DNA from: a virus | Direction: 5' to 3' (one strand) | IMG/VR virus record: IMGVR_UViG_2974521666_000001 | Length of the DNA stretch: 64,000 nucleotides | Shown here: in pieces, positions 2-50,664 of the stretch | Numbering within the stretch: position 1 is the first letter of the stretch | Layout of the letters: each line of letters starts with the position of its first letter | The notes under the pieces: generated by a model | Seen by the model: only the letters and a program-made list of their open reading frames with translations | What the model was told of the DNA's origin: nothing | Databases searched by the model: none | Position numbers and translations under genes: made by a program

Positions 2-1807
2 GGCCTGTTTCCCATAGACAAGGTACCGGATAAGCCCCACCCACACTGCCGGTGCTTCGTCACGCCTGAAGAGGCCGATGACGAGATGCTGGAGCACATG
101 TTTAACAGTGGGCAGCTAGATGACTACCTGGACAACTTCATTGAAGGTGGCGACGACGCAGTACCTCTTACTGAGGCAATTGGTTCCTTGAAGGGTGGCC
201 CAGAGCCGTTCGACATGATTCCGTCGCCGCCCGAACCAGCCACCACTAAGGCCGCGCAGCCCAAGGGCTGGACTGGACCTCTGGTGGCTAAGGCTGCTGC
301 GAATGAAACCGTTAGGGCGACAACCAATTCCATCTGGAAGGCTAATGTTGCCCGGCTTGCCTTCCTGAACAAGGCCCGTGAGGGCTCCAGAATCGTTGAG
401 ACCAAAGGCTATAGGGGCGGCCTGTCTTCAGCCGGCAAGAAAGCCATGCTGGGACATGATCTTGAGGTTGATGCCCCTGACTCCATGGCCTTGGACGTTG
501 GCCGTGAGCTAACGGCTCGCATTGCGTACTCTGAAGGTACAACCCAAGAGCTATTCCACGCTATCAATCTCGAGGGCGCTGATATTGACCGGCTGATTTC
601 TGGCTCGGCCGACATCAGCATCCCTTTGACGCAGGTATCCACTACTGCTGCAGATGCTTTCGAGGCTGCTGCTGCGTTGAAGAACACGGAAACCCGTGTG
701 CTGCTACGGTTTAAAGAGGGCACCAAGGCAGCAGAGATTGACCCCACCCGGCAAGTCACCATGGGGTGGCTTAAGGTCAACGGTGGCGTAAAACGTAGTG
801 AGCCATCGGGAGGCCACTACTACATTCTGGATGTGGAACAACGCGACGTCCGCGAATTCGAGGCCTTTACTCCTGAGGGACAAACGATTCCGGACTTTGA
901 GCTAATTCAGGAAAACAAGCTTGTCAGCGCCGCTACGAAGGTAGACCCTAGCGACACTAAGAAAGTCGCCGGCTCCCCTGTCGTTGAACCTGAGCCAGAG
1001 TTCAAGACTGTGCGGCAACGTATCTCTGAGTCCAAGGACATCTTCGAGATTCGCACAATCCTCAAGGAAGAGTACTATTTTCAACTTAACAACTGGGACG
1101 ATCAGCACCTTGATCTTGCGTCCGCCAAGGAAATTGCTCTTGGCCTAGAGAAGAACATTTCCAAGTACCCAGAGGCCCTGGACACACTGACTCACGTTGA
1201 GATATGGCCCAACGATGCTATGGACGGGGCCTATGCTCACGTACAACCGGAGTGGGACGGTTCATCGAAGTTGCGTCTCAACGTCAAGTTCGCCAACAAC
1301 TATGCTCAAATGGAGAAGAGCAAGAAGAGTGGTGAGACAAGGCGTTGGACCACCACTGGAGCAGGCACCAACCCGTGGGATGCCACCATCACGCACGAGT
1401 TTGGCCATGTGTTGGATTGGCGTTACACGCGTATGGATTCATGGAAAGATCTGAACGCCATTATGGAGAGTGAGTACGCCAAGGCCAATCCAGCGTACAA
1501 GAAGGATAACCACACCCTTGCTGGCCGTAAGAAATTGGTATCCAGGTGGCTCGGCGAACGAGATGTGATCGAGGACTACCACCCTGAAACAGGGGAGAAG
1601 AAAGCATTCTACCGGCACATTGGCGGTGCCCCCAGCGGCTACTCGGTGAGTAAACCTAATGACTGGGGATTCAACCCGGCTGAGCTAGTGGCAGAATCAT
1701 TTACGGACGTGGAGCGTAACGGGGACGGGGCCAAGCCAACATCTAAGGCAGTCCACAAGTGGCTCATGAGGAAACGTAAGAAGTTACAACAGGAAGGCGT
1801 GATGTGA
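2..1807 (+). CDS. MuF-like minor capsid/head-morphogenesis protein, 5' end outside window, with long C-terminal extension carrying an HExxH metallopeptidase motif
   Basis: Frame of ORF 86..1807 stays open back to nt 2 (..KPHPHCRCFVTPEE), which is the HPxCRC end typical of Phage_Mu_F/SPP1 gp7 domains. HEFGH at nt 1394-1408. Lies upstream of scaffold and capsid genes. Confidence 0.6.
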   Translation, partial: GLFPIDKVPDKPHPHCRCFVTPEEADDEMLEHMFNSGQLDDYLDNFIEGGDDAVPLTEAIGSLKGGPEPFDMIPSPPEPATTKAAQPKGWTGPLVAKAAANETVRATTNSIWKANVARLAFLNKAREGSRIVETKGYRGGLSSAGKKAMLGHDLEVDAPDSMALDVGRELTARIAYSEGTTQELFHAINLEGADIDRLISGSADISIPLTQVSTTAADAFEAAAALKNTETRVLLRFKEGTKAAEIDPTRQVTMGWLKVNGGVKRSEPSGGHYYILDVEQRDVREFEAFTPEGQTIPDFELIQENKLVSAATKVDPSDTKKVAGSPVVEPEPEFKTVRQRISESKDIFEIRTILKEEYYFQLNNWDDQHLDLASAKEIALGLEKNISKYPEALDTLTHVEIWPNDAMDGAYAHVQPEWDGSSKLRLNVKFANNYAQMEKSKKSGETRRWTTTGAGTNPWDATITHEFGHVLDWRYTRMDSWKDLNAIMESEYAKANPAYKKDNHTLAGRKKLVSRWLGERDVIEDYHPETGEKKAFYRHIGGAPSGYSVSKPNDWGFNPAELVAESFTDVERNGDGAKPTSKAVHKWLMRKRKKLQQEGVM

Positions 1808-2951: not shown

Positions 2952-3620
2952 GTGAGTAGGTACGACAAGTACGATCCGAAGAATGGAGGATACCGGGCTC
3001 CCCTGGCATCCGACTTCTCGGCATCGAATCGTGAACGCTTGCTTGGCGTTGGGCATGACGCCCAGGGCCGAGTGGTCATTGGCGCTGGTGTCTCTGGCAT
3101 CACGGGCGTGCTCGTTTTGACCAAGGCACGCAAGGCCGGTGAAATCATCGACGTTATGACCAGCGGTGAGATCGTGGAATTCGGTCCTACGCTTGGTGTT
3201 CCGGGCGTGGATTTCGGTGAGCCTGGTACCGTATATTTCTCGGACGACTTGGGCAATGTCAGCTCGGGTAACGAAGAGGTGCAGACGGTTACTGTCACCA
3301 ACGACGAGAACCCCTTCACCCTCAGCTGGGACGGCGCTGGCCCGACGGCAAGCATTCCCGGGAACGCCACTGCTGCAGCGGTTCAGACGGCTCTGGAAGG
3401 CCTGAGCAACATCGATCCTGGTGACGTTGTGGTGACCGGTGAAGCCGGTGGCCCCTACGCAGTCAAGTTCACCGGACGGTACAACGACACCGACGTTCCG
3501 CAGATGACCGGTAGCAACGCTACCGTTTCCACCACGACCGCCGGAGGTTCAACCACTGGCCTTACCCGCGTAGGCCATACGGTGTCCGGTCAGCGCCTGA
3601 TTGTGAGGGTTGAGCACTGA
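2952..3620 (+). CDS. capsid-associated protein (possible decoration/auxiliary head protein)
   Basis: GTG after a GAAAGGGA RBS. 222 aa between the scaffold and major capsid genes, with its stop overlapping the capsid start (TGATG). Function inferred from position only. Confidence 0.4.
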   Translation: MSRYDKYDPKNGGYRAPLASDFSASNRERLLGVGHDAQGRVVIGAGVSGITGVLVLTKARKAGEIIDVMTSGEIVEFGPTLGVPGVDFGEPGTVYFSDDLGNVSSGNEEVQTVTVTNDENPFTLSWDGAGPTASIPGNATAAAVQTALEGLSNIDPGDVVVTGEAGGPYAVKFTGRYNDTDVPQMTGSNATVSTTTAGGSTTGLTRVGHTVSGQRLIVRVEH

Positions 3621-4849
3621 TGAACACTGCACTGCTTGAGAGTGACCTGAAGATGTTGCGGGACAACCCCTCTCTTCGCTCACTCCTGACGCGACTTCCG
3701 TTCGGCGGAGAAGACACTGCAGGCGGTTACGGCACTGAGGGCGATATCGTCTACACGACGAACGACAACGTCGACCTCAACGCGCTGTGGGCTGAAGCGC
3801 AGCAGGCTCTTACGATCTGGAACCAGGGCCGGAACAAACTGGTTTCTCTACTGACCTACCAGGTTACAAAGGAAATCGAGGAAGTGCCTCAGGTCGGCGA
3901 AGCTACCTTCGAGGAAGCGTCGGAATTCGGTGAGCCTGAAGGCGAACGGCTGAAGCTTGGCTACTTCCAGCTTGGTTTCGACTTCAAGGACTACGACCGG
4001 GCCACCCGCTTCACCTGGAAGGCGTTGCGAGACATGGACGCCCGTCAGGTGCGTGCGGTCAACAACGCCATGCTGCAGGCCGACGAGCGTCTCGTGTTCC
4101 GGAAGGTCATGGAGGCCATCTTCGACAACCGCAATCGCGAGACGGACATTCGGAACAACCCGTATCCGGTGTACCCACTCTACAACGGTGATGGCACCGT
4201 GCCGCCGTCCTACGGAGACAACACCTTCGACGGCACACACGACCACTACCTCGTGAGCGGCAATACCCTCATCGACAGCGGTGACCTGGAAGATGCGTAC
4301 GAGCATCTGTTCCATCACGGTTACAGCATCGAAAACGGTACGCAGATCATCTGTCTGATGAACCGTCGCCAGATCAAGGAAGTCCGGAAGTTCCGGATGG
4401 GCCAGGTCAACAACAACGGCGTTGAGGCCAATTACGATTTCGTGCCCTCTCGCAACCAGCCTGCCCAGTTCCTCGATGGGCCGTTGGGACTCATCGGCAC
4501 TCTTCCGCCCGACTGGTGGCAAGGTCTGCGGGTGAGCGGCAGCTACGATGACATCCTGATCATCGAGCAGCCGTTCATTCCTGACGGGTACTTCCTGATG
4601 TTCGGCGCTGGTGGAGCCGGCAATCTGCAGAACCTCGTAGGCTTCCGGGAGCACAAGAACCCGGTGTACCGTGGCCTGCGCATTCTGCCGGGCCGTGACG
4701 CTGGCTACCCGCTGATCGAGTCCTACTACACTAGGGCTTTCGGTACCGGTATCCGCCAGCGCGGTGGTGCCGTGGTCGTCCAGATCAAGGAGGACGGCGC
4801 TTACGAACCTCCCGAGCAGTACACCCGTGGTCTGGATCTGATTGCCTAG
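3620..4849 (+). CDS. major capsid protein
   Basis: 409-aa ORF directly after the scaffold/auxiliary genes and followed by a 16-bp hairpin. Size and position are typical of HK97-fold capsid genes. Confidence 0.65.
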   Translation: MNTALLESDLKMLRDNPSLRSLLTRLPFGGEDTAGGYGTEGDIVYTTNDNVDLNALWAEAQQALTIWNQGRNKLVSLLTYQVTKEIEEVPQVGEATFEEASEFGEPEGERLKLGYFQLGFDFKDYDRATRFTWKALRDMDARQVRAVNNAMLQADERLVFRKVMEAIFDNRNRETDIRNNPYPVYPLYNGDGTVPPSYGDNTFDGTHDHYLVSGNTLIDSGDLEDAYEHLFHHGYSIENGTQIICLMNRRQIKEVRKFRMGQVNNNGVEANYDFVPSRNQPAQFLDGPLGLIGTLPPDWWQGLRVSGSYDDILIIEQPFIPDGYFLMFGAGGAGNLQNLVGFREHKNPVYRGLRILPGRDAGYPLIESYYTRAFGTGIRQRGGAVVVQIKEDGAYEPPEQYTRGLDLIA

Positions 4850-4861
4850 CAATCGGTTCCA

Positions 4862-4902
4862 CTGAGGAGGGCCAGTGGCTTCTGGTCACTGGCCTTCCTC
4901 AG
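4862..4902 (+). terminator. strong hairpin after capsid gene (terminator/mRNA stabiliser)
   Basis: CTGAGGAGGGCCAGTG (4862-4877) pairs with CACTGGCCTTCCTCAG (4887-4902): 16 bp including one G-U, with a 9-nt loop. Confidence 0.55.
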
Positions 4903-4925
4903 ACCAAATATCGAAGGGGGACAAC

Positions 4926-5264
4926 ATGTCTCGAGTGATTCGAAACGACCACCTGTGGACTGATGAAGAGGTGGCCTACAAGCTGGCCCGGTGCCTGGGG
5001 CACGAGGTTGCAGCGAACCGTAAGATGTTCGGTCCCGGTGGTCCTCGTGAGGGGCAGGCCCCTGAGCCTGAGGACGACGAGGACGACGGCGTTACGCTGA
5101 GCCTGGATCAGGACATCTACGAGCACGTTCTCAACCTGAAGGTGGAAGACCTGAAGGCAGAACTGAAGCAGCACAGCCTTTCTACTCGTGGCAACGAGCA
5201 AGAGCTGCGGTCCACGCTGGCCCAGTACCTCCAGGATACAAGGGATGCCAACGACAACGAGTGA
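4926..5264 (+). CDS. SAP/HeH-domain protein
   Basis: ATG after AAGGGGGA. C-terminal LKVEDLKAELKQHSLSTRGNEQELRSTLAQYL fits the SAP (Rho-N-like) helix-extended-helix motif. Confidence 0.55.
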   Translation: MSRVIRNDHLWTDEEVAYKLARCLGHEVAANRKMFGPGGPREGQAPEPEDDEDDGVTLSLDQDIYEHVLNLKVEDLKAELKQHSLSTRGNEQELRSTLAQYLQDTRDANDNE

Positions 5265-5613
5265 GCTTGTAGCTCTAGTCAACCGTCACCTTCCGACAGA
5301 CGCCAAACTGTCGGAAGATGATGGTGGCTATGGCTGGACAGACCAGTACGTAGAGGAGTTGCTCTCTACGGGTTTGAAGCCAGCTCAAGTCGTGAGGTTC
5401 TTTTGGTATCAGCGTACACAGGAAACTGCTGAGTACCTAGACCTTTCAAAGCCGTTGTCCCAGATCCATAGGCAGGCTAAGGAAATGCTTGCCTACTGGG
5501 ATACGGTGATACAGACCAACCCTGACGGCATGGAGCCGCTGGATCCCAGTGCTAACCAAAACCGTCACAAGAACATCACTTTCGGAAGCATTGAGAGGCC
5601 GTGGTCGAAATGA
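5245..5613 (+). CDS. head-to-tail connector protein (putative)
   Basis: ATG 5245 inside ORF 5188..5613. Lies between the capsid and tail genes. Function is positional. Confidence 0.4.
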   Translation: MPTTTSELVALVNRHLPTDAKLSEDDGGYGWTDQYVEELLSTGLKPAQVVRFFWYQRTQETAEYLDLSKPLSQIHRQAKEMLAYWDTVIQTNPDGMEPLDPSANQNRHKNITFGSIERPWSK

Positions 5614-5987
5614 AGGCTAGCCTGCTCAATGCACTCCGTAAAGGCACCAATATTAGCCTCAAGATCGATAGCCACACTATCGTTCTCGTACCGCACGAGA
5701 AGACCCACAAGGGTGGTGGCGTGTACGACAATGAGGCCCAAACCCCTAGGCCTCCTCAGCAATTCTCCGTTGAGCAACCATCAGGTGGACTCCGGACGGC
5801 CGAGGGAGCCCTTCTGCACCAATGGGATTATGAGCTTGTCGGCGCATACAACGCCGCAATCGCCATCGGGGACACCTGGACTCACAACGGAATGGTGTAC
5901 CGGGTGACAACGATCATGCCTGACAACGGGTATGAGAAGCGCGCTGCCATAGTGGCCGTAGGTAAGGACCCGGCATATGGCACGTAG
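5610..5987 (+). CDS. head-to-tail connector protein (putative)
   Basis: ATGA overlap with the upstream stop at 5610-5613. Function is positional. Confidence 0.45.
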   Translation: MKASLLNALRKGTNISLKIDSHTIVLVPHEKTHKGGGVYDNEAQTPRPPQQFSVEQPSGGLRTAEGALLHQWDYELVGAYNAAIAIGDTWTHNGMVYRVTTIMPDNGYEKRAAIVAVGKDPAYGT

Positions 5988-6372
5988 TAGCGCTCAGATC
6001 CAGATCACAGGCATTGACCAGATGGCCCGTGCCATGAAAGAGCATGACCAGAAGGTCAAGCGTGCCATGGCTTTTGAGTTCAAGCGAGCTGAGCCGTTAG
6101 CCACTAGTTACGCTAAGAAGAACGCGCCGTGGACAGACCGTAGTGGCAACGCTCGTGCTGGGCTACACGCCAAGGCCCGGTCAATCGACGCAGGCAACGC
6201 GTTTGATTTGACCATGGCACACAGTGTGTTCTACGGCATCTTTCTTGAGACCCGGTGGTCCGGCAAGTACGCAATCCTGTTGCCTACCATCAACTATATT
6301 GGCAAGATTCTGATGCAACGCATTGAGTCTCGCCTAGGGAGGCTTGGGGATACGGGGGTGCCTCGTGAGTAG
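5977..6372 (+). CDS. head-tail adaptor, HK97 gp10-like (putative)
   Basis: 131 aa. KKNAPWTDRSGNARAGL...FYGIFLE resembles the HK97 gp10 family by eye. Gene order supports this. Confidence 0.5.
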   Translation: MARSSAQIQITGIDQMARAMKEHDQKVKRAMAFEFKRAEPLATSYAKKNAPWTDRSGNARAGLHAKARSIDAGNAFDLTMAHSVFYGIFLETRWSGKYAILLPTINYIGKILMQRIESRLGRLGDTGVPRE

Positions 6373-6793
6373 AGCTGCCTTGTTCAACGCTCTCATTGCC
6401 GACGCCACCCTGAACGGCTATGGAATCAATTCTAATACGGTGTTCCACAACTGGTCCAAGGAAGAGCGCCCTACTAACGGTACGGCTTTCGCTATCTTGC
6501 GCTGGGAGGACGAGGCGAAGCCCCTGTGGGGTAGTGAACCCGAGCGCGGGCCTCGCAACCTTACTGCGTGGGTACACTACCCAATTGAGCTGAGTAACGA
6601 CTTCAATAAGGTCACTAGGGTTTTAGACCGCATGGATGACGTTCTCAGAGGGCTCAGAGACGTTGCAGGGAATGATGGTTACAAGCTGTCGTTCGTGCAA
6701 CTTGGCGGCAGGTCACCCGACCTGGTGGATGATGGCTTCAACACCATCACGCGACACGCCAGCTACCAAATCTACTCAGTCCCATCGATTTAG
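6365..6793 (+). CDS. neck/tail-terminator-like protein (putative)
   Basis: GTG 6365 overlaps the upstream end by 8 nt. The N-terminus (LFNALIADATL..VFHNW) resembles DUF3168-type tail-completion proteins by eye. Confidence 0.4.
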   Translation: MSRAALFNALIADATLNGYGINSNTVFHNWSKEERPTNGTAFAILRWEDEAKPLWGSEPERGPRNLTAWVHYPIELSNDFNKVTRVLDRMDDVLRGLRDVAGNDGYKLSFVQLGGRSPDLVDDGFNTITRHASYQIYSVPSI

Positions 6794-6801
6794 GAGAAGA
6801 C

Positions 6802-7203
6802 GTGGCAGAGGACAAGCCGGTGCTCAACCCGCCGACCAAACTTGACGTGGATCTCAGCACCAAAGCTGACGACAAGGCCGCTAAGACGGATGACCCTCGT
6901 CAGGGGTTGCCGACAACCGTACGGTTGCAGGAAAATCAGCCGGCGTACGACTACAGCAAGACGACCAAGGGCACTGATCCTCGGGGCAAGTACGTGCGGT
7001 ACAACGGTGTTGGCACCGTACGGGTCATGGGTCCCAAGGAGTGGAAGGCCGCTGGTGTCAAGTCGGACGACTACTTCGAGTGGAACGTCCTCAACAAGAA
7101 ACGAATCCCGTTGAGTTCGTTCAGCGATGAACAGCTGCAGTATCTGCTGCGTGTGGACGGCCGATTCGAGCTTGTTGAGGACAAGCCGGAAACCAAAGGC
7201 TGA
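6802..7203 (+). CDS. hypothetical protein (133 aa)
   Basis: GTG after a TAGGAGA RBS. Lies in the structural module. Confidence 0.5.
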   Translation: MAEDKPVLNPPTKLDVDLSTKADDKAAKTDDPRQGLPTTVRLQENQPAYDYSKTTKGTDPRGKYVRYNGVGTVRVMGPKEWKAAGVKSDDYFEWNVLNKKRIPLSSFSDEQLQYLLRVDGRFELVEDKPETKG

Positions 7204-7207
7204 CAAC

Positions 7208-7465
7208 ATGACTGTCGCTGTGTCCAGGGTCGAATACCGTTGCAAGGGTAAAGTGCACGGTGTTCGAAAGGTGTATCCCGACGGCAAGGTGTACGTTGAG
7301 ATTCGCTGCAAAGACCACTGGTGCACCGACAGGGAGCCGGGAGTTGTAGTGTTCCACTACTTCGATCCGGAAACTGGGGAACTGCACCACACGCAGAAGT
7401 ACTCCAGTGCAAAACCAACAAAGTCAGAGCGGGTACAGCTCGAATCAGATTGCAACGAAAGGTGA
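7208..7465 (+). CDS. hypothetical protein (85 aa)
   Basis: ATG 7208 inside ORF 7127..7465, 4 nt after the upstream stop. Confidence 0.45.
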   Translation: MTVAVSRVEYRCKGKVHGVRKVYPDGKVYVEIRCKDHWCTDREPGVVVFHYFDPETGELHHTQKYSSAKPTKSERVQLESDCNER

Positions 7466-42538: not shown

Positions 42539-42988
42539 ATGACTGTTGAGACGACCGAAAAGACGGGCCGTGGCGGCGCTCGTGGACCTCGTGTGTTCAA
42601 GGACACGCCGACTCCCCGCGACCGGGTGATCAGTGAGTCGTTGGCCGACAAGGTCAAAGAGCTCACCGGCAAGACCATTTCGCCGGAGGACTGCCGCGCC
42701 GTCAAGTTCAGTCTCTCTCGGTGGTACGAAGACCCTGCCACCAAGGAACTGCTGAACGACATGGACGCTCAGCTCAAGAAGGCCAAGGCCAAGGAGAAGG
42801 CCGAGAAGGCCCGCAAGCTCCTGGAAGAGGCCCAGCGGGAGCTGGAAGACGCTGAGGAAGACGACGATTCGGACGACGCGTCGGACGAGGACACCCAGGC
42901 CGCTGCTGCGGACGAGGACGACGAGGACGACGAGGACTCGTTGTTCGACGACGAGGACGAGGACGACAAGGTCAGCGCGACCTTCTGA
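42539..42988 (+). CDS. protein with extremely acidic C-terminal tail (149 aa)
   Basis: ATG 42539 after AAAAGGGAAGAG, inside ORF 42482... The last ~45 aa are almost entirely D/E. Confidence 0.55.
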   Translation: MTVETTEKTGRGGARGPRVFKDTPTPRDRVISESLADKVKELTGKTISPEDCRAVKFSLSRWYEDPATKELLNDMDAQLKKAKAKEKAEKARKLLEEAQRELEDAEEDDDSDDASDEDTQAAAADEDDEDDEDSLFDDEDEDDKVSATF

Positions 42989-44151
42989 TCCGGTCCTCTA
43001 GGGCAGCTACCGAATTGGGGATTAAGTAGCCCCACTACCATCCTCTGGTGAAGAAGATTGCACGGCCTCCCCGTACAGCCACGCAATGTCTCCCCAGTTC
43101 GGTAGCTCTAAAGGGTAGAGAGACATCGACACTCAGCACGTATTGAGTAGCCCCTCGGCAAGCTGAAAACGTCTGTCTCTCTACTCCTTAGGGCAGGACC
43201 TGCCCTCCAGTGACCGGGGTACGCACCAGCGAAGAGTCAAGTACAGTCCCTCCAAGCCTGGAAGACCCAGTAGCACAGAGCCTCTGCCCCGGTACACGGG
43301 AATTGTTCTTACACAGTTGAATATACTTCGAGCCTGATCGATAGGCAGTAGCAATGCTGCTGAAAGGCCGGTTGATCCCCGGTCGCCTAGTAATCCTAGG
43401 TAACTCAGGCAATCCAGTACCTTCGCCCATCTGAACGGTGGTGGGACGCAGGCAAGCAGAGCGGGCCAGGCCGATACGGTGAGGCCAGTCGTGTACGCAG
43501 CGACTCAAACGCTATAAGCTGCAAGCCTGATGGTTGGTACATGGGAGGGATACATAGTGCGAGTAGGCATACAAGTGCGGTATCCATGGAGGCCCCAAGG
43601 CGTGGTTGGCGAATCACGTAGGAGCTGAAGAGCACAAGTAGCGGGCACGTGAAAGTGCGATGGCGTGGTGCATTCTGTGGCTCAAAAGGCGACGGAACAC
43701 CTGGGGCAGCACGTCGTCAGATCGTATGGCCTGGTCTCCCTAAGGGACCACCAAAGCGCTCAGGCAAGAGCACTACCATTGGGAGGTAGCAACGGTGTAA
43801 AAGCCGTTTCCGGTTCGACTCCGGCAAAGCAAAAGTCTGTCCCCGCTAGCAACGAAAGTACCCTAATCCCTAGGGCTTACGCCAACTAGGGCACCGGAAG
43901 GCTCGCAAGGCCGACTGGTGTTGCTAGACAAAGTAGTGCAGGTAGGGGGAGGCCACCCCTGACCGAATCGAAACGTCAGCGAGTAGTTCGCTAGTGTAGG
44001 TAGTGGTTCCGCCAATCAAACGGGACCGGGTACGGTGGCTGCAAGTGGGAGCTTGCGGACAAGGAACTAACACATAAGGTTCTGAAAGGCCACTGGGATT
44101 AGGGTCAAGTCTACGCCCTTTCCACCCCTAACAACAAGAGGATGGTAACTC
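42989..44151 (+). ncRNA. 1.16-kb ORF-free, highly base-paired region (candidate large structured RNA or replication origin)
   Basis: No credible ORF or RBS. 16-bp helix 43005-43020/43092-43107, 13-bp helix 43113-43125/43174-43186, many local hairpins, and a T-arm-like CCGG-TTCGACT-CCGG at 43810-43824. Confidence 0.4.
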
Positions 44152-45418: not shown

Positions 45419-46249
45419 ATGCCGACATGGGATGAAGCTGTACAGGATCCAGATATCGTTGCGTTGGATGCCATTTCGCCGCACCCAAACTTTATGGTCT
45501 ACGGGGCCTCTGGCTGTGGTAAGACGGTGCTGGGAGGCAGCGACGACAAGGTGCTGTTCCTCACGTGTGAGCCAGAGGGTTGCATCAGTGCAAAGCGCAT
45601 GGGCAGCAATGCAAGACAGGTGATCATCCATCATTGGGACCAGCTGGAAGAGTGGTACGACAAGCTATCCGAGTGGGCCGAGGACGGCACCGGCATCCCG
45701 TTCAACTGGATCGTGATCGATACCATTAGTGACGCACAGGGATTGTTGTTCGACAAGCTGCTGGATGAGAAGGGCCTGGACGTAGAGGACTGGCCCACCT
45801 ACCGCAAGAACCAGAAGATACTGCTACGCTACGTCAAGAAGATGAACCAGCTGCCGGTCAACCTGCTCTGGTTGGCATGGGACCGTAAGGAAACCGACGC
45901 CGACGGTGAGGACTTCTTCTGCCCTGAGATTCACGGCAAGGGCTACTCCATTGCAATGCAAGTGGCAGCACAGATGACCTCGTACGGTTACATGCAGGTT
46001 CGCACCGAGCGCAAGCAGGTGATGAAAGACGGTAAGGCAGTAGTCAATCCGAAGACTAAGAAGCCACGCACAACACTAGAGACACATCGCTATATATACT
46101 GGCAGGACATTCAAAGCTTGAGAGGCAAGGACCGAACGATGGCGCTGGCCCCGTTCACAAAGGACTTGACTCTCAGAGACATTCGCCTGAAGGTTGAAAA
46201 GGCCTTTGCCGGCGAAGCTGAGAAAACCGATGAGAAAGTAGGGAACTGA
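45419..46249 (+). CDS. AAA/RecA-like ATPase (Sak4-like)
   Basis: Walker A GASGCGKT and Walker B-like WIVIDTISD. Confidence 0.65.
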   Translation: MPTWDEAVQDPDIVALDAISPHPNFMVYGASGCGKTVLGGSDDKVLFLTCEPEGCISAKRMGSNARQVIIHHWDQLEEWYDKLSEWAEDGTGIPFNWIVIDTISDAQGLLFDKLLDEKGLDVEDWPTYRKNQKILLRYVKKMNQLPVNLLWLAWDRKETDADGEDFFCPEIHGKGYSIAMQVAAQMTSYGYMQVRTERKQVMKDGKAVVNPKTKKPRTTLETHRYIYWQDIQSLRGKDRTMALAPFTKDLTLRDIRLKVEKAFAGEAEKTDEKVGN

Positions 46250-46950
46250 TGCCCAAGGTGATGAAGCCGCCCACCGATTACGATGACTCGGCGACCAACA
46301 CAGGCGGTGATTGGTACGATGGCCCACCGCCAAAGCCGGGCCTGTACAAGGGCGTTGTGAAGAAGATGCTGCTGTCCAAGGTCACCCAAGGGGAGAAGAA
46401 GGGCGAGCAGCGAATCATGGTGATCTGTGAGATCTCTGAGGGCAAGTTCAAGGGAGCCGGTGTCTCCAAGTGGCTTCAGCTCACCCAGCAAGGCAGCCCG
46501 TGGGTCAACCAGTTCCTCCATGCCCTCACCGACGGCAGCGAAACCCAGAAGGCCGCAATCCGCAAGGCTTTCAAGGAGATTGGCTTTGCCGTCGACGATG
46601 CAGATGCCAAGAAGCGCTACCCGATTGTCCGTATCGGCAAGAAGACCAACCCGATTGGCCGCCCAATTAGCTTCGTGACGAAAATGCGTACGGACGACCA
46701 GGGAGTCGAACGGGCCGAAATCAGCCGCTTCGTCACGCCTCGTGCTGCGGATGACGATGAGGACGAGGACGATTCGGACGACATCTTGACGGCCGACGAC
46801 GACACCACAGAGGACGACGGCGACGAGGGCAACGCCGACGACACGTTCGGTGACATGGACTCGGACGACGATGCAACCGATGGCGATTCGGAAGACGAAG
46901 AGTTGCCGGCTGATGACTCAGACGACGAGGGTGAGCCCTGGGAAGTCTGA
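46249..46950 (+). CDS. ssDNA-binding-like protein with acidic C-terminal tail
   Basis: Lies between the ATPase and polymerase genes. The C-terminal ~70 aa are D/E-rich and end in an aromatic-containing EPWEV, as in gp2.5-type SSBs. No OB-fold check was possible. Confidence 0.45.
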   Translation: MPKVMKPPTDYDDSATNTGGDWYDGPPPKPGLYKGVVKKMLLSKVTQGEKKGEQRIMVICEISEGKFKGAGVSKWLQLTQQGSPWVNQFLHALTDGSETQKAAIRKAFKEIGFAVDDADAKKRYPIVRIGKKTNPIGRPISFVTKMRTDDQGVERAEISRFVTPRAADDDEDEDDSDDILTADDDTTEDDGDEGNADDTFGDMDSDDDATDGDSEDEELPADDSDDEGEPWEV

Positions 46951-47042: not shown

Positions 47043-47978
47043 GTGATTTGGGTTAGCCTGCATACACATTCGACCTTTTCGTACGGGGACGGGTACGGGC
47101 CGGTGGGCGTTCACGTTGACAGAGTTGCAGACCTTGGCATGACCGCGTTGGCGCTCACAGAGCACGGTAACTGCTCCAGCTGGGTCCAGCTCGAAAAGCA
47201 TTGTAAGCGTAGGGAAATCAAGCCAATCTTTGGCCTGGAGGCCTACGTTGCCTCAGAGAACCAGCCACGCAAGTTCCACATGATCCTTCTCGCGAAAGAC
47301 GATGAGGGACTACACAATCTGAACTGCATCATTACTGAGAGCTGGAAGACACTCGGGACTACTAGCAAATCTAAGTTTCCCACCGTTCACGCACCAGTAC
47401 TGAGGAAGTACAATCGTGGCATCATTGCTCTGTCGGGCTGCGCGGACGGCCCCATCTCTTGCATCCTGTTGGGTGGAAAGTCATTGGGTGACAAACGATT
47501 GGAACCCAGAGACGGGGACATTCAACGAGCCAGGCGTGCAATTGAAAGGTTCCAGGCGATATTTGGCGACAGGTATTACCTTGAGACCCAGCGATTTTCT
47601 GGTCTCGCTCGCACTCGTGCTCTCAACCCGTGTTTCGAGGAACTTAGCAACACAACGGGAGCACGAATGGCTGCTACTGCTGACGTGCATTATCCCTACC
47701 CGAATGACAATGAGATGCAGCGCATCTTGCACGCGGCTCACCGTCAGAGCACTGTTGAAGTTACTGACGCTAACTGGGAGTACGACATACTGCTCACGTA
47801 CCCTGAAACCGATAGAGAGGTATACAGAGACCTTGTGGGCACGGGACTCAGCACTGCGGGAGCCAAGGCCGCTGTTGAGGCCACGGCGCACATTGCAGAC
47901 CAATGCAATGTAGAGCTGCCCAAAGCGCCGCCACCGAAATATGTACCGGGGGAAAGAGATTGGGAGCCATGGACGTAG
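47043..47978 (+). CDS. dnaE: DNA polymerase III alpha, N-terminal PHP-domain fragment
   Basis: VIWVSLHTHSTFSYGDG and ALTEHGN are PHP motifs. The ORF ends where the PHP domain normally joins the palm domain. Confidence 0.75.
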   Translation: MIWVSLHTHSTFSYGDGYGPVGVHVDRVADLGMTALALTEHGNCSSWVQLEKHCKRREIKPIFGLEAYVASENQPRKFHMILLAKDDEGLHNLNCIITESWKTLGTTSKSKFPTVHAPVLRKYNRGIIALSGCADGPISCILLGGKSLGDKRLEPRDGDIQRARRAIERFQAIFGDRYYLETQRFSGLARTRALNPCFEELSNTTGARMAATADVHYPYPNDNEMQRILHAAHRQSTVEVTDANWEYDILLTYPETDREVYRDLVGTGLSTAGAKAAVEATAHIADQCNVELPKAPPPKYVPGERDWEPWT

Positions 47979-48355
47979 AGCGTGTGGACGCACACGAGGA
48001 GCTAGTTGAGAAAGTTAAACGGCTCCTAAGGCGTAGGGGCTGGGACATCCTAGTCATTGCGAGACTAGGCGGTTGGGTGGAGGCAGTGGACTTCTTTGCC
48101 TTCAAGCCAGATCGGGGCGTGGCAGGCATCATCTGCCACGTCAAAGAGGGGCAGGACTACTGTCTGCGGGCCGCACAGGCTGAACGCTGTGTAGACTGGG
48201 ACAGCCCGGCATACGTGGTCTATAGCAACGGGGCCACGATACCGGCCAAAGACCTAGCAGCACATGGGCGCAAAGAGCAGTACGCAGGCCACCACCCGTT
48301 CTACAGGTACATCAGGACCAATAGGGTGTACACGTTCAACGAGGTGTTCCGGTGA
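47969..48355 (+). CDS. small nuclease-like protein inserted between the dnaE halves
   Basis: ATG 47969 overlaps the upstream end by 10 nt, and its stop overlaps the downstream GTG (GTGA). The pattern E..D(FFAF)..HVK is compatible with a PD-(D/E)XK fold. This is a weak call. Confidence 0.35.
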   Translation: MDVERVDAHEELVEKVKRLLRRRGWDILVIARLGGWVEAVDFFAFKPDRGVAGIICHVKEGQDYCLRAAQAERCVDWDSPAYVVYSNGATIPAKDLAAHGRKEQYAGHHPFYRYIRTNRVYTFNEVFR

Positions 48356-50664
48356 CGAAACCTGTACTGTCAGAGCAGGAGACTGAGAAACTCTTCAAGT
48401 TCTGGCTTGCCGAGGGGTTCAAGTTCCGTAGGCGCACTAGCAAAGAGATGCAGGCCGAACCTAAGAAGTACCAAGAGCGCCTGCGCATGGAATTCGGCGT
48501 AATCCGTAGCGTACCAGGGTATATCGACTACTTTCTCATGGTGAGCGACTTGGTGCGTTGGGCCAAAGACAATGGCATTCTAGTGGGTCCAGGCCGTGGT
48601 AGTGCAGCCGGCAGTCTGTGTTGCTGGCTTTTGCGTATCACCGAGATTGACCCACTGCTGTACCCCATGCTCTTTGAGCGGTTCCTGGACCCTACGCGTA
48701 CAGACCCTCCAGATATCGATATCGACTTTGAGGACGAGAGGCGTTGGGAGGTTATTCAATACGCCCAGGAAAAGTACGGATACGATAGGGTTGCTAACAT
48801 TCTGACGTTCACCCGGTACAAGGGCAAGAACAGCCTGGATGACGTAGCGCGCGTATACGAAATCCCAGAGTGGAAGATTGAGAACATCAAGGGTAAGCTG
48901 GTGGAGCGGCAAGACGGCCACCCACGGTTCTCCATGACACTGCTTGACACCTTCGATAGCTACGACGACGTTGCCGAAACAGTTAGGCGTACACCTGAAT
49001 TGCAGTACGCGCCACGGCTGGAGGGCATCAACGGGCAGTCCAACTACCGTACGGCCGGTATCCACCCCGCTGGCATTGTGATCAGTGGCGTACCGTTGAC
49101 TCAGATTACAGCCACCTACGAAAAGCAGAGTGGTGCCCAGCGCGGAAGCGGCGTTGCGTACGACAAGAAAGACAGTGAGTACCTAGGTCTTCTGAAGGTT
49201 GACTTCCTTAGCCTAACTACGCTTACCGGCATCCGAGCGACACTAGAACACCTACAGTGGGTGCGTGACCGAATCGGCATGACTATCGAGGAGTTCTACC
49301 AGATACCACTAGATGACCCTAAGGTTTTCGAGGCGTTTCGCGCTGGTGACGTATTGGGCATATTCCAGTTTGAGGGTGTGGCAACACGGCGCGTGCTCAA
49401 AGGCGTACAGCCAGATAAGTTTATGGACCTGGTAGACGTAAACGCACTGAGCCGCCCTGGTGGCGACGATACGGCGTACATCAAGGCCAAGAGCACAGGC
49501 CAGCTGCCAGAGCCGGTCCACCCCACAGTTGATGACCACATCCAATGGACCTGGGGCACTATCGTTTACCAGGAACAGATTCTTCTAATCCTTAGGGACT
49601 TTGGAGGATTCGCGCCGGCTGAGGTCAACCGCATTAGGAAGATCATCTCGGCCAAGGAAGACTCAAGTGTCTTCAACGAGTTCCTCGAAAGGTTCGTGGA
49701 AGGTGCTGCGTCTCACGGCGTTTCACGCGAGAAGGCCGTGGGTGTGTGGCAGAAGATGGTCAACGCTACAGGGTACGCGTTCAACATCAGTCACGCTGTG
49801 TGTTATAGCGATACGGCCTACCGTCAGATGTGGCTTAAGGTGTACTACCCTGAGTTCTACCTAGGGCAGCTACTCAAGTGTCCCGACACAGCAGAAGGCT
49901 TGGAGCGCCGTAGGAAGTTGATCGTGGAGGCCGAACGCAAGGGTATTAAGGTCAATAGCCTGGATCTGCATGAGTCACAGGCAGGCTGGAGCTTGCGCGG
50001 CGGCAGCCTGTACGCTGGCTTTACAGCCGTGAAGGGCATTGGCCTCAAGACCGCTGAGAAGATTGTCCAGTGGCGTGATGAACACAAAACAGAGGCTCTT
50101 GAGTGGTCTAGCCTTACAGCCGTTTCTGGCATTGGTGACGGCAGAGTAAAAGTGATGCGCCAGTTCGCAGAAGACGATGACCCGTTTGGCGTGCTGGCCA
50201 CCAAACGCCTACTTGATAGCATACGTAGGGAATTTGAGGCAGGCAAATTTCCTGGTGTTCCAGAGCCGACGCACGTCAGCATCGACATTGTGGAAGAAGA
50301 TGAGTACGTAGTCTTTATGGGCGTGCTGCGCAAGAAGACCTACAAAGACACTGTGCAGCAGCGTCTTAAGTACGGGGGAGACGGCCTCACCCGAGAGAAA
50401 ATCCTAGAGGAGCTAGATGAACCGCACCTACTGAAGTACGCAACCCTGGACGTTGACGACGAGTACGACGAGCCAATACGCTTGCGGGTGAGCCGGAAGA
50501 AGTACCCACAGTACGCCGGTCTGATTGCCAACGCCCGCGCTGGTGTGGACGTAATCCTGGTGACAGGCTACGTGACTCACTTTGGAGGCTTGGCCATTCA
50601 GGTCAAGGAACTAATCGTAATCAATCCGGAAGAGGATGAAACACAGGATGACTTATCGTTCTGA
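48352..50664 (+). CDS. dnaE: DNA polymerase III alpha, palm-thumb-fingers-OB fragment
   Basis: YFLMVSDLVRWAKDNGILVGPGRGSAAGS and FERFLDPTRTDPPDIDIDFE are DnaE palm motifs. HhH-like GIGLKTAEKI. Confidence 0.85.
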   Translation: MTKPVLSEQETEKLFKFWLAEGFKFRRRTSKEMQAEPKKYQERLRMEFGVIRSVPGYIDYFLMVSDLVRWAKDNGILVGPGRGSAAGSLCCWLLRITEIDPLLYPMLFERFLDPTRTDPPDIDIDFEDERRWEVIQYAQEKYGYDRVANILTFTRYKGKNSLDDVARVYEIPEWKIENIKGKLVERQDGHPRFSMTLLDTFDSYDDVAETVRRTPELQYAPRLEGINGQSNYRTAGIHPAGIVISGVPLTQITATYEKQSGAQRGSGVAYDKKDSEYLGLLKVDFLSLTTLTGIRATLEHLQWVRDRIGMTIEEFYQIPLDDPKVFEAFRAGDVLGIFQFEGVATRRVLKGVQPDKFMDLVDVNALSRPGGDDTAYIKAKSTGQLPEPVHPTVDDHIQWTWGTIVYQEQILLILRDFGGFAPAEVNRIRKIISAKEDSSVFNEFLERFVEGAASHGVSREKAVGVWQKMVNATGYAFNISHAVCYSDTAYRQMWLKVYYPEFYLGQLLKCPDTAEGLERRRKLIVEAERKGIKVNSLDLHESQAGWSLRGGSLYAGFTAVKGIGLKTAEKIVQWRDEHKTEALEWSSLTAVSGIGDGRVKVMRQFAEDDDPFGVLATKRLLDSIRREFEAGKFPGVPEPTHVSIDIVEEDEYVVFMGVLRKKTYKDTVQQRLKYGGDGLTREKILEELDEPHLLKYATLDVDDEYDEPIRLRVSRKKYPQYAGLIANARAGVDVILVTGYVTHFGGLAIQVKELIVINPEEDETQDDLSF

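Follow-up and report, generated by a model that had tools for sequence, protein, structure and literature searches.

The dnaE locus of phage Send513

The stretch of DNA analysed here, referred to below as the window (64,000 nucleotides (nt); IMG/VR record IMGVR_UViG_2974521666_000001), is 100% identical to Mycobacterium phage Send513 (JF704112; cluster R, genus Papyrusvirus), and a window position equals the position in that record minus 7547. The window carries a dnaE gene, i.e. the gene for the alpha subunit of DNA polymerase III (Pol III alpha), that is divided over two genes, gp72 and gp74, with a third, small gene, gp73, between them (Table 1). The three open reading frames (ORFs) occupy three different reading frames. 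Both neighbours of gp73 overlap it, and the gap between the dnaE halves is wholly filled by its ORF, with zero non-coding bases left. An earlier, sequence-only reading of this DNA had proposed these ORFs with their coordinates and overlaps, and all of them were recovered exactly as claimed. The base composition across the gp73 insert shows nothing unusual, and promoter or terminator signals inside the locus did not rise above chance.

The gp72 product corresponds to the PHP domain of Pol III alpha (Pfam PHP, 1.7e-36). Its match to the NCBIfam Pol III alpha models is confined to positions 1-285, and it aligns to residues 8-288 of the Taq alpha subunit, with HxH, D, H, E, H, C and DxH retained as metal ligands; none of the conserved PHP ligand positions covered by this alignment has been lost, and the protein is probably a proofreading exonuclease. 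The gp74 product comprises the palm, thumb, fingers and HhH domains (Pfam DNA_pol3_alpha, 2.7e-73; DNA_pol3_finger, 4.4e-36; HHH_6). It aligns to Taq alpha 386-910 and E. coli alpha 300-854, its residue 19 being placed on E. coli residue 300, and the polymerase motifs PDIDxDF and hAaG are conserved with respect to both. On the profile of intact DnaE proteins (phrog_405), gp72 spans positions 42-325 and gp74 positions 332-890, which implies a seamless cut. The break lies near residue 280 of E. coli alpha and from residue 288 of Taq alpha onward, that is, at the boundary between PHP and palm, and the earlier proposal that DnaE is split at precisely this boundary is thus borne out by Pfam, by phrog_405 and by the alignments with the two bacterial subunits, the comparison with intact DnaE having placed the insertion point between profile positions 325 and 332. 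In domains and catalytic motifs the locus encodes a bacterial-type Pol III alpha, the sole difference being that it consists of two polypeptides. Within the cluster, the PHP piece has a ratio of nonsynonymous to synonymous substitution rates (dN/dS) of 0.07-0.12 and the polymerase piece one of 0-0.02; judged by their sequences, both pieces look functional.

The GenBank label of gp72, 'DNA polymerase III sliding clamp (Beta)', is wrong, as the protein is the PHP domain of the alpha subunit instead. The same label has been given to the orthologues in Zenon, Candle, Nilo, Riparian, MontyDev and Weiss13 and to most GenBank records of the cluster; newer records (Rope) label both pieces DnaE-like. 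The C-terminus of gp74 reads ...TQDDLSF, which we take to resemble the Q-x-x-L-x-F motif for binding of the beta clamp. The polymerase pieces of three related loci (L009, L015 and L019) end without such a sequence, which makes the significance of the motif doubtful.

The same three-ORF arrangement is present in 10 distinct, independently sequenced phage isolates (97.9-100% nucleotide identity), and the Send513-type layout also occurs in one IMG/VR contig. This recurrence in isolates and metagenomes excludes a sequencing or assembly artefact, which the sequence-only reading had likewise considered the less likely option. It is hardly credible, moreover, that the split is only apparent, whether through an error in the sequence or its assembly or because a single DnaE is made after all by programmed frameshifting, by a self-splicing intron or by a split intein. 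In variants of the locus that have no insert, the C-terminal piece begins in frame -1 and overlaps the final codons of the N-terminal piece, so that a frameshift fusion is formally conceivable there; it is not for Send513, where two successive frameshifts would be required, where a slippery heptamer is not visible in the sequence at either overlap, and where the gap is filled by a conserved ORF of 128 codons under purifying selection. No group I or group II intron family was found by Rfam at E<=1 in positions 47700-48700, nor was a Hint or intein domain found in a Pfam scan of the three ORF products, and homology to intact DnaE extends to within about 10-20 residues of each broken end, which leaves no space for intein halves. 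With intron and intein excluded, the two pieces must work as separate polypeptides, and we conclude that dnaE of Send513 is truly split into two genes.

Contents and distribution of the split junction

The junction was compared among relatives with approximately 50-78% identity in the PHP piece. About 30 related loci are cut at one and the same residue, whereas dnaE is intact at the junction in Hawkeye, in Nocardia P3.1 and in about 45 IMG/VR loci. The sequence-only reading had argued that a continuous dnaE in relatives would point to a sequencing error; an intact gene occurs solely among more distant relatives, the nearest ones being split, which leaves the finding standing. The cut also occurs without any insert, namely in LittleFella, L004, L015, L017, L046-49 and L054, and the PHP half of the insert-less locus L015 is 78% identical to that of Send513.

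Every split PHP piece has a C-terminal tail that consists of D-[WYH]-x-x-W and 0-2 further residues (8 for the Onyinye group), and whatever gene follows this tail starts at an ATG or GTG that is embedded in, or overlaps, the last tail codons. Among 44 distinct junction peptides from intact genes, not one has the tail. On the C-terminal side, a 'LFKFW' motif was considered as a second split-specific feature and rejected, as many intact genes carry the same tryptophan-containing helix; the split-specific feature is therefore the N-side tail only.

What lies between tail and polymerase piece varies. Genes for HNH endonucleases occupy the junction in four lineages over the Pfam cut-off and in a fifth that is borderline, one lineage carries a Dam methylase gene (Table 1), and several small ORFs in this position belong to no Pfam family. 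One of the latter, Onyinye gp83 (92 aa), was considered as a relative of gp73 and set aside, because it appears unrelated by inspection of its translation; it has no Pfam family. The loci L054 and L055, 90-93% identical at the nucleotide level, are set apart by a clean indel of approximately 240 nt exactly at this site. Within the DnaE clade of Send513 itself the site holds gp73, nothing (L015), an HNH gene (L019) or another ORF (L016), which amounts to a presence/absence polymorphism. The junction thus behaves as an insertion slot with exact boundaries and variable contents. These observations bear on the earlier suggestion that a mobile nuclease gene generated the two-subunit DnaE. The link to mobile nucleases as such gains from the Pfam-confirmed HNH genes at the same junction in relatives, whereas neither mobility of gp73 nor a causal role of gp73 in the split is supported: the same cut exists without an insert, including in L015, and with unrelated cargo in many lineages, so that gp73 probably did not create the split.

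Two observations concern other positions in dnaE. Cuke-type DnaE genes (Mycobacterium phage Cuke, L037 and L038) are intact at the PHP/palm boundary and are cut at a second site, around residue 300 of the C-terminal piece of Send513, into products of 601 and 477 aa whose genes overlap by 4 nt without any insert, so that DnaE fission in actinophages is not confined to one site. In Onyinye-like phages, a gene annotated as HNH endonuclease in Aikoy lies directly upstream of the PHP piece and overlaps its annotated start; possibly, endonuclease genes have a second point of insertion there, at the 5' edge of dnaE.

The distribution of the split was followed in a neighbour-joining tree of the concatenated DnaE pieces (1025 columns, 100 bootstraps), in which the split genes fall into at least four well-supported clades that alternate with intact sister lineages. 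The Send513 clade (100% bootstrap support) is split in 7 of 7 members, with four different junction states, and the Onyinye clade (100%) in 6 of 6; L004, L054 and L055 group together (100%) as sisters of the intact L042 and L065 (100%), L025 and L027 form a clade (100%) in which the one carries HNH_3 and the other Dam, and L017 is sister to the intact L035 (90%). The split clades are therefore polyphyletic. L017 resembles its intact sister L035 along the whole protein except for about 60-80 residues around the junction, and this junction tract is markedly closer to split dnaE genes from other clades (+0.27 and +0.23). A common residue, a common tail, the polyphyly and the local tract together form the pattern that is expected of endonuclease-driven recombination with co-conversion, by which the split and its tail would most likely have spread among dnaE genes, the turnover of cargo following later. 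Transfer of the HNH cargo itself between clades was also considered and is unsupported, since the identity of the cargo is at most that of its flanks.

A different course of events would be a fission of dnaE without any mobile element, in which a mutation made a stop codon beside a usable internal start, after which the permissive slot gathered small genes ('morons'). The existence of several insert-less split lineages agrees with this, as does the cargo that is not nuclease-like (the Dam methylase and small ORFs that are cysteine-rich or encode membrane proteins) and the fact that HNH cargo identity never exceeds flank identity. We nevertheless regard it as quite improbable, because the well-supported split clades, although separated by intact sisters, have the cut residue and the D-W-x-x-W tail in common, because the cross-clade similarity is local to the junction, and because HNH genes are the commonest identifiable cargo.

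The gp73 family

The gp73 protein matches phrog_17644 over 128 of its 128 residues and had no match in Pfam, NCBIfam, PADLOC or the sequence profiles of the PDB; none of the seven family members matched Pfam at E<=1, tblastn of gp73 against phages returned nothing outside its family, and a word-based protein search returned the query cluster only. An exhaustive HMMER search among 1.84 billion representatives recovered only a few relatives of 126-130 aa, with 23-42% identity. Long proteins that were matched in the same search (P0002, P0012, P0013 and others, up to E 6e-26) were rejected as spurious; the two that were checked by Pfam, P0012 and P0013, are FG-GAP/LapA repeat proteins in which weak matches to gp73 residues 47-104 had been summed.

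A structure prediction from the single sequence by AlphaFold2 was unusable (predicted local distance difference test, pLDDT, of 46), and prediction from an alignment of seven sequences gave a model with a pLDDT of 85.3 and a predicted template modelling (TM) score of 0.81. The model has an alpha-beta-beta-beta-alpha-beta core, with helices at residues 3-22 and 68-75 and strands at 26-28, 42-46, 50-57 and 81-85. Its structural matches are Hjc resolvases (scores 11.0, 10.8 and 10.5), the fusellovirus nuclease D212 (10.6), the homing endonuclease I-Ssp6803I (9.7), Hje (9.5) and VRR-NUC (8.9). Foldseek, independently, placed Hjc on top (TM 0.62-0.66) and, in BFVD, matched the model to viral resolvase- and nuclease-like models. 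The prediction is, accordingly, that gp73 has a PD-(D/E)XK nuclease fold of the Hjc-like type; the PD-(D/E)XK nucleases are the group with which the insert had earlier been called compatible on the basis of a weak 'E..D..xVK' pattern.

That pattern itself holds in part. Residues H9, L12, W25, G50, H57, Y64, Q70 and W77 are invariant in the family alignment, position 41 is acidic throughout (D, with E in one member) and position 59 is basic, being K in Send513 and Arg in every other aligned member; no Glu of helix 1 is conserved across the family, and the second acid of the pattern is replaced by the invariant His57. An hhalign comparison of the family with Hjc, used only for register as its probability is 2%, pairs D41 with D33, H57 with E46 and K59 with K48. 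Strand 3 thus presents His57-x-Lys/Arg59 where the superfamily has (D/E)-x-K, and the putative catalytic constellation, H9, D/E41 and H57-x-K/R59, is non-canonical. Variant active sites are known in the PD-(D/E)XK superfamily, and nuclease activity of gp73 is at most plausible.

The archaeal Hjc and Hje enzymes (PDB 1hh1, 2wcw, 1gef and 1ob8) share with gp73 the Asp of strand 2 and the Lys of strand 3, in register, but the sequence profiles of the two do not match, the tetrad E-D-E-K is not kept in gp73, which has its invariant His at the position of Glu46, and the genomic context of gp73 is a polymerase gene junction. As gp73 also has no Pfam match, it does not fall within the Hjc-type resolvases. 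I-Ssp6803I (PDB 2ost) is, like gp73, a small protein of restriction fold and is an enzyme that acts as a homing endonuclease; its identity to gp73 is 8%, its Foldseek E-value is only 0.047, and cleavage by gp73 is a prediction. I-Ssp6803I is intron-encoded and resides in a tRNA gene. We consider gp73 and its relatives a small, previously uncharacterised PD-(D/E)XK family with a histidine-containing site.

The family is exclusive to the dnaE junction and was found nowhere else: in all seven lineages (the Send513 cluster, L009, L010, L011/12, L013, L030/31 and L032/33) the gene lies directly 3' of a PHP piece that ends at one common residue. L032 is an exact copy of the Send513 layout, and the remaining loci carry one or two extra small ORFs. 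Recurrent among these is a cysteine-rich mini-ORF of about 57-74 aa (C-x2-C...D-H-x-Y-H...C-x2-C...C-x2-C-G-G), which follows the gp73 homologue in four metagenomic lineages and is missing in Send513 and L032; Pfam assigned no family to the L010 member, the only one scanned. It may be the second component of a cargo cassette. The PHP pieces that flank the gp73 genes are mostly 71-86% identical (66% in one comparison involving partial sequences) and the polymerase pieces 67-72%, whereas the gp73 relatives are pairwise 28-46% identical, with 72% for the closest pair. An insert identity below that of the flanks agrees with long vertical residence and fast evolution, with no sign of recent transfer.

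These properties also allow a reading in which gp73 is a domesticated replication or recombination partner, co-translated with the polymerase, and acts either as a structure-specific nuclease (a Hjc-like resolvase or a flap/fork nuclease) or as an assembly or regulatory factor. Such a role, the chief competitor of the reading favoured below and in our view possible if on balance rather unlikely, accords with Hjc resolvases as the best structural matches, with the presence of gp73 in this operon only, in 7 of 7 lineages, with the overlap of its start and stop codons with both neighbours, and with its retention while the flanks diverged to about 75% and 67% identity. The set of invariant residues, a dN/dS of about 0.1 (based on few substitutions) and the lack of any sign of horizontal movement point the same way. 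Close relatives, however, have a split DnaE without gp73 (L015 has no insert and L019 has an HNH gene), so that gp73 is not an obligatory subunit; furthermore, these phages already encode a RuvC-like resolvase, gp73 evolves about 2-3 times faster than its flanks, and the same slot houses bona fide HNH genes and other unrelated cargo.

Interpretation, known split genes and features upstream of dnaE

The reading that we favour, with a probability of roughly 0.55, is that dnaE of Send513 is a 'gene in pieces' without inteins, located at an old, mobile junction that acts as a hot-spot for homing endonucleases, and that gp73 is the cargo which the slot holds in the Send513 clade. In place of one replicative polymerase chain the phage would make two, separated at the PHP-palm linker, with gp72 providing the PHP domain and gp74 the polymerase core; a single, tightly coupled operon would give rise to both, and they would presumably associate again by non-covalent contacts. 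The gp73 protein would most likely be a site-specific (homing-type) endonuclease, or the long-resident descendant of one, that maintains itself at the junction.

Several points weigh against this reading. The trees are of the neighbour-joining type only, and the junction-tract signal, clear in one sister pair, is weaker in L004 and L054, so that convergent selection on the tail is an alternative. The predicted structure of gp73 rests on only seven aligned sequences, its top structural matches are resolvases and not homing enzymes, and its site deviates from (D/E)xK both by the change of the acid to His57 and by Arg in place of Lys in the other members, which means that the protein may be inactive or use a different chemistry. 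In addition, the family is restricted to one DnaE clade, and in every pair the gp73 insert is less similar than the flanking PHP piece; the vertical residence that this suggests equally suits a domesticated accessory protein. Finally, gp73 has no untranslated leader or regulatory hairpin, unlike many free-standing endonuclease genes. The confirmed HNH cargo of L019 is coupled as tightly as gp73.

A more speculative elaboration, improbable in our estimation, would give the protein parts a role of their own. The D-W-x-x-W tail and the conserved, tryptophan-containing first helix of the polymerase piece would then form a portable module for non-covalent re-joining, carried between dnaE genes by endonuclease genes and making fission harmless, and gp73 would have been recruited as the third part of a three-piece replicase, with a regulatory or nucleolytic function, for instance that of a fork or flap nuclease supplied at a fixed ratio to the polymerase and proofreading subunits.

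For the gene in pieces at an endonuclease hot-spot there is precedent. In Aeromonas phage Aeh1, nrdA is split by the free-standing HNH gene mobE, whose insertion gave rise to tails that the split enzyme cannot do without (Crona et al. 2010, PMC3045599). Both cases concern an essential, replication-related gene that has become two ORFs in original order and orientation with a small endonuclease-type gene between them, without intein or intron and with short new tails at the broken ends, and Send513 displays what marks the Aeh1-type genes in pieces, namely ordered ORFs that cover phrog_405, an ORF of predicted nuclease fold between them and a split-specific tail. The two differ in that the host gene of Send513 is dnaE and is cut at a domain boundary, in that its resident has a predicted PD-(D/E)XK (Hjc-like) fold where that of Aeh1 is HNH, and in that the dnaE cut is common to many lineages, with cargo that changes or is absent. 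The role of the tail has biochemical support in Aeh1, whereas for Send513 we infer assembly and any such role from sequence; homing and nuclease activity of gp73 would likewise follow from its position and predicted fold.

The 'fractured genes' of marine metagenomes, which include three dnaE loci (Dassa et al. 2009, PMC2677866), are similar in that both halves stay at a single locus, separated by a free-standing endonuclease gene that overlaps the downstream half, and in that insert-less derivatives exist. In the model of these authors, the invading endonuclease gene supplies a stop and a start codon and may later be lost. Yet the fractured genes re-ligate their protein by split inteins, whereas Send513 has no intein halves, and their endonucleases are GIY-YIG or Vsr-like with leaders of 27-51 nt and hairpins, whereas gp73 has no leader. 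The integration points of the fractured genes differ from one another and from that of cyanobacteria (PMC2677866). The split dnaE of cyanobacteria also yields Pol III alpha from two genes, but it has another break point, its halves lie at separate loci and trans-splicing re-ligates the protein (PMC2677866). A literature search found no description of an actinophage dnaE split or junction hot-spot, of the gp73 family or of the tail.

The junction represents a natural experiment in which the PHP proofreading domain has been separated from a C-family polymerase core, with dozens of intact, split and cargo-bearing variants for comparison. As a well-populated endonuclease hot-spot in an essential gene, it bears on the tolerance of fission, the turnover of cargo and the survival time of a resident nuclease gene, and gp73, if active, would add a new specificity to the few known homing enzymes of restriction fold. 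On a practical level, the annotation of gp72 and its orthologues as sliding clamp should be corrected.

Table 1. Positions of the features at and around the split dnaE of Send513, and of features and cargo genes in related loci (bit scores of cargo from Pfam)
Feature	Sequence	Position	Strand	Remarks
gp72	window	47043..47978	+	311 aa from GTG at 47043; ORF opens at TTG 47025
Split-specific tail of gp72	window	47958..47978	+	D-W-E-P-W-T-stop; ATG of gp73 (47969) inside the Pro-Trp codons
gp73	window	47969..48355	+	128 aa; ATG at 47969
gp74	window	48352..50664	+	770 aa; GTG start overlaps gp73 stop (GTGA)
gp72/gp73 overlap	window	47969-47978		10 nt, read from sequence
gp73/gp74 overlap	window	48352-48355		GTGA, read from sequence
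C-terminus of gp74	window	50641-50664		...TQDDLSF
Cargo, Endonuclease_7 (HNH superfamily)	L019			53 bits
Cargo, Endonuclease_7	L060			50 bits
Cargo, Endonuclease_7	L061/L101			49 bits
Cargo, HNH_3	L051/52			50 bits
Cargo, HNH_3	L025			23.9 bits, just under the 24.8 cut-off
Cargo, D12 Dam methylase	L027			42 bits
Cuke-type DnaE pieces	Cuke (L007)	3983-5788 + 5785-7218		
HNH gene 5' of PHP piece	Aikoy (L008)	3529-3972		gp82
Equivalent ORF	Leopard (L005)	3534-3968		labelled 'hypothetical'
Cysteine-rich mini-ORF	L009	4098-4271		
Cysteine-rich mini-ORF	L010	1631-1855		
Cysteine-rich mini-ORF	L011	1495-1698		equals L012 1258-1461
Cysteine-rich mini-ORF	L013	~729-908		
GOLLD RNA (RF02032)	window	43658-44118	+	full-length match; 180.4 bits against a gathering threshold of 150; E 9e-51
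GOLLD RNA	L001	2761-3221		
GOLLD RNA	L014	1616-2076		
GOLLD RNA	L030	173-602		207 bits; tRNA nested inside
Unannotated stretch	window	42989-44151		1.16 kb, between gp68 and gp69
Inverted repeats	window	43005-43107 and 43105-43194		
9-nt periodic repeats	window	42902-42980		3' end of gp68
gp71	window	46249-46950		just upstream of gp72

Upstream of the replication genes, the window contains a match to the GOLLD RNA within the unannotated stretch that separates gp68 from gp69. The RNA is conserved in phage Rope, in an IMG/VR relative and in the distant metagenomic phage L030, and our literature search found no paper that ties GOLLD to mycobacteriophages. The inverted repeats at the start of the same stretch may belong to the variable 5' half of GOLLD. 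Directly before this stretch, gp68 ends in 9-nt periodic repeats of the GACGAGGAC type, which presumably encode an Asp/Glu-rich tail, and gp71 has a similar acidic tail at its end.

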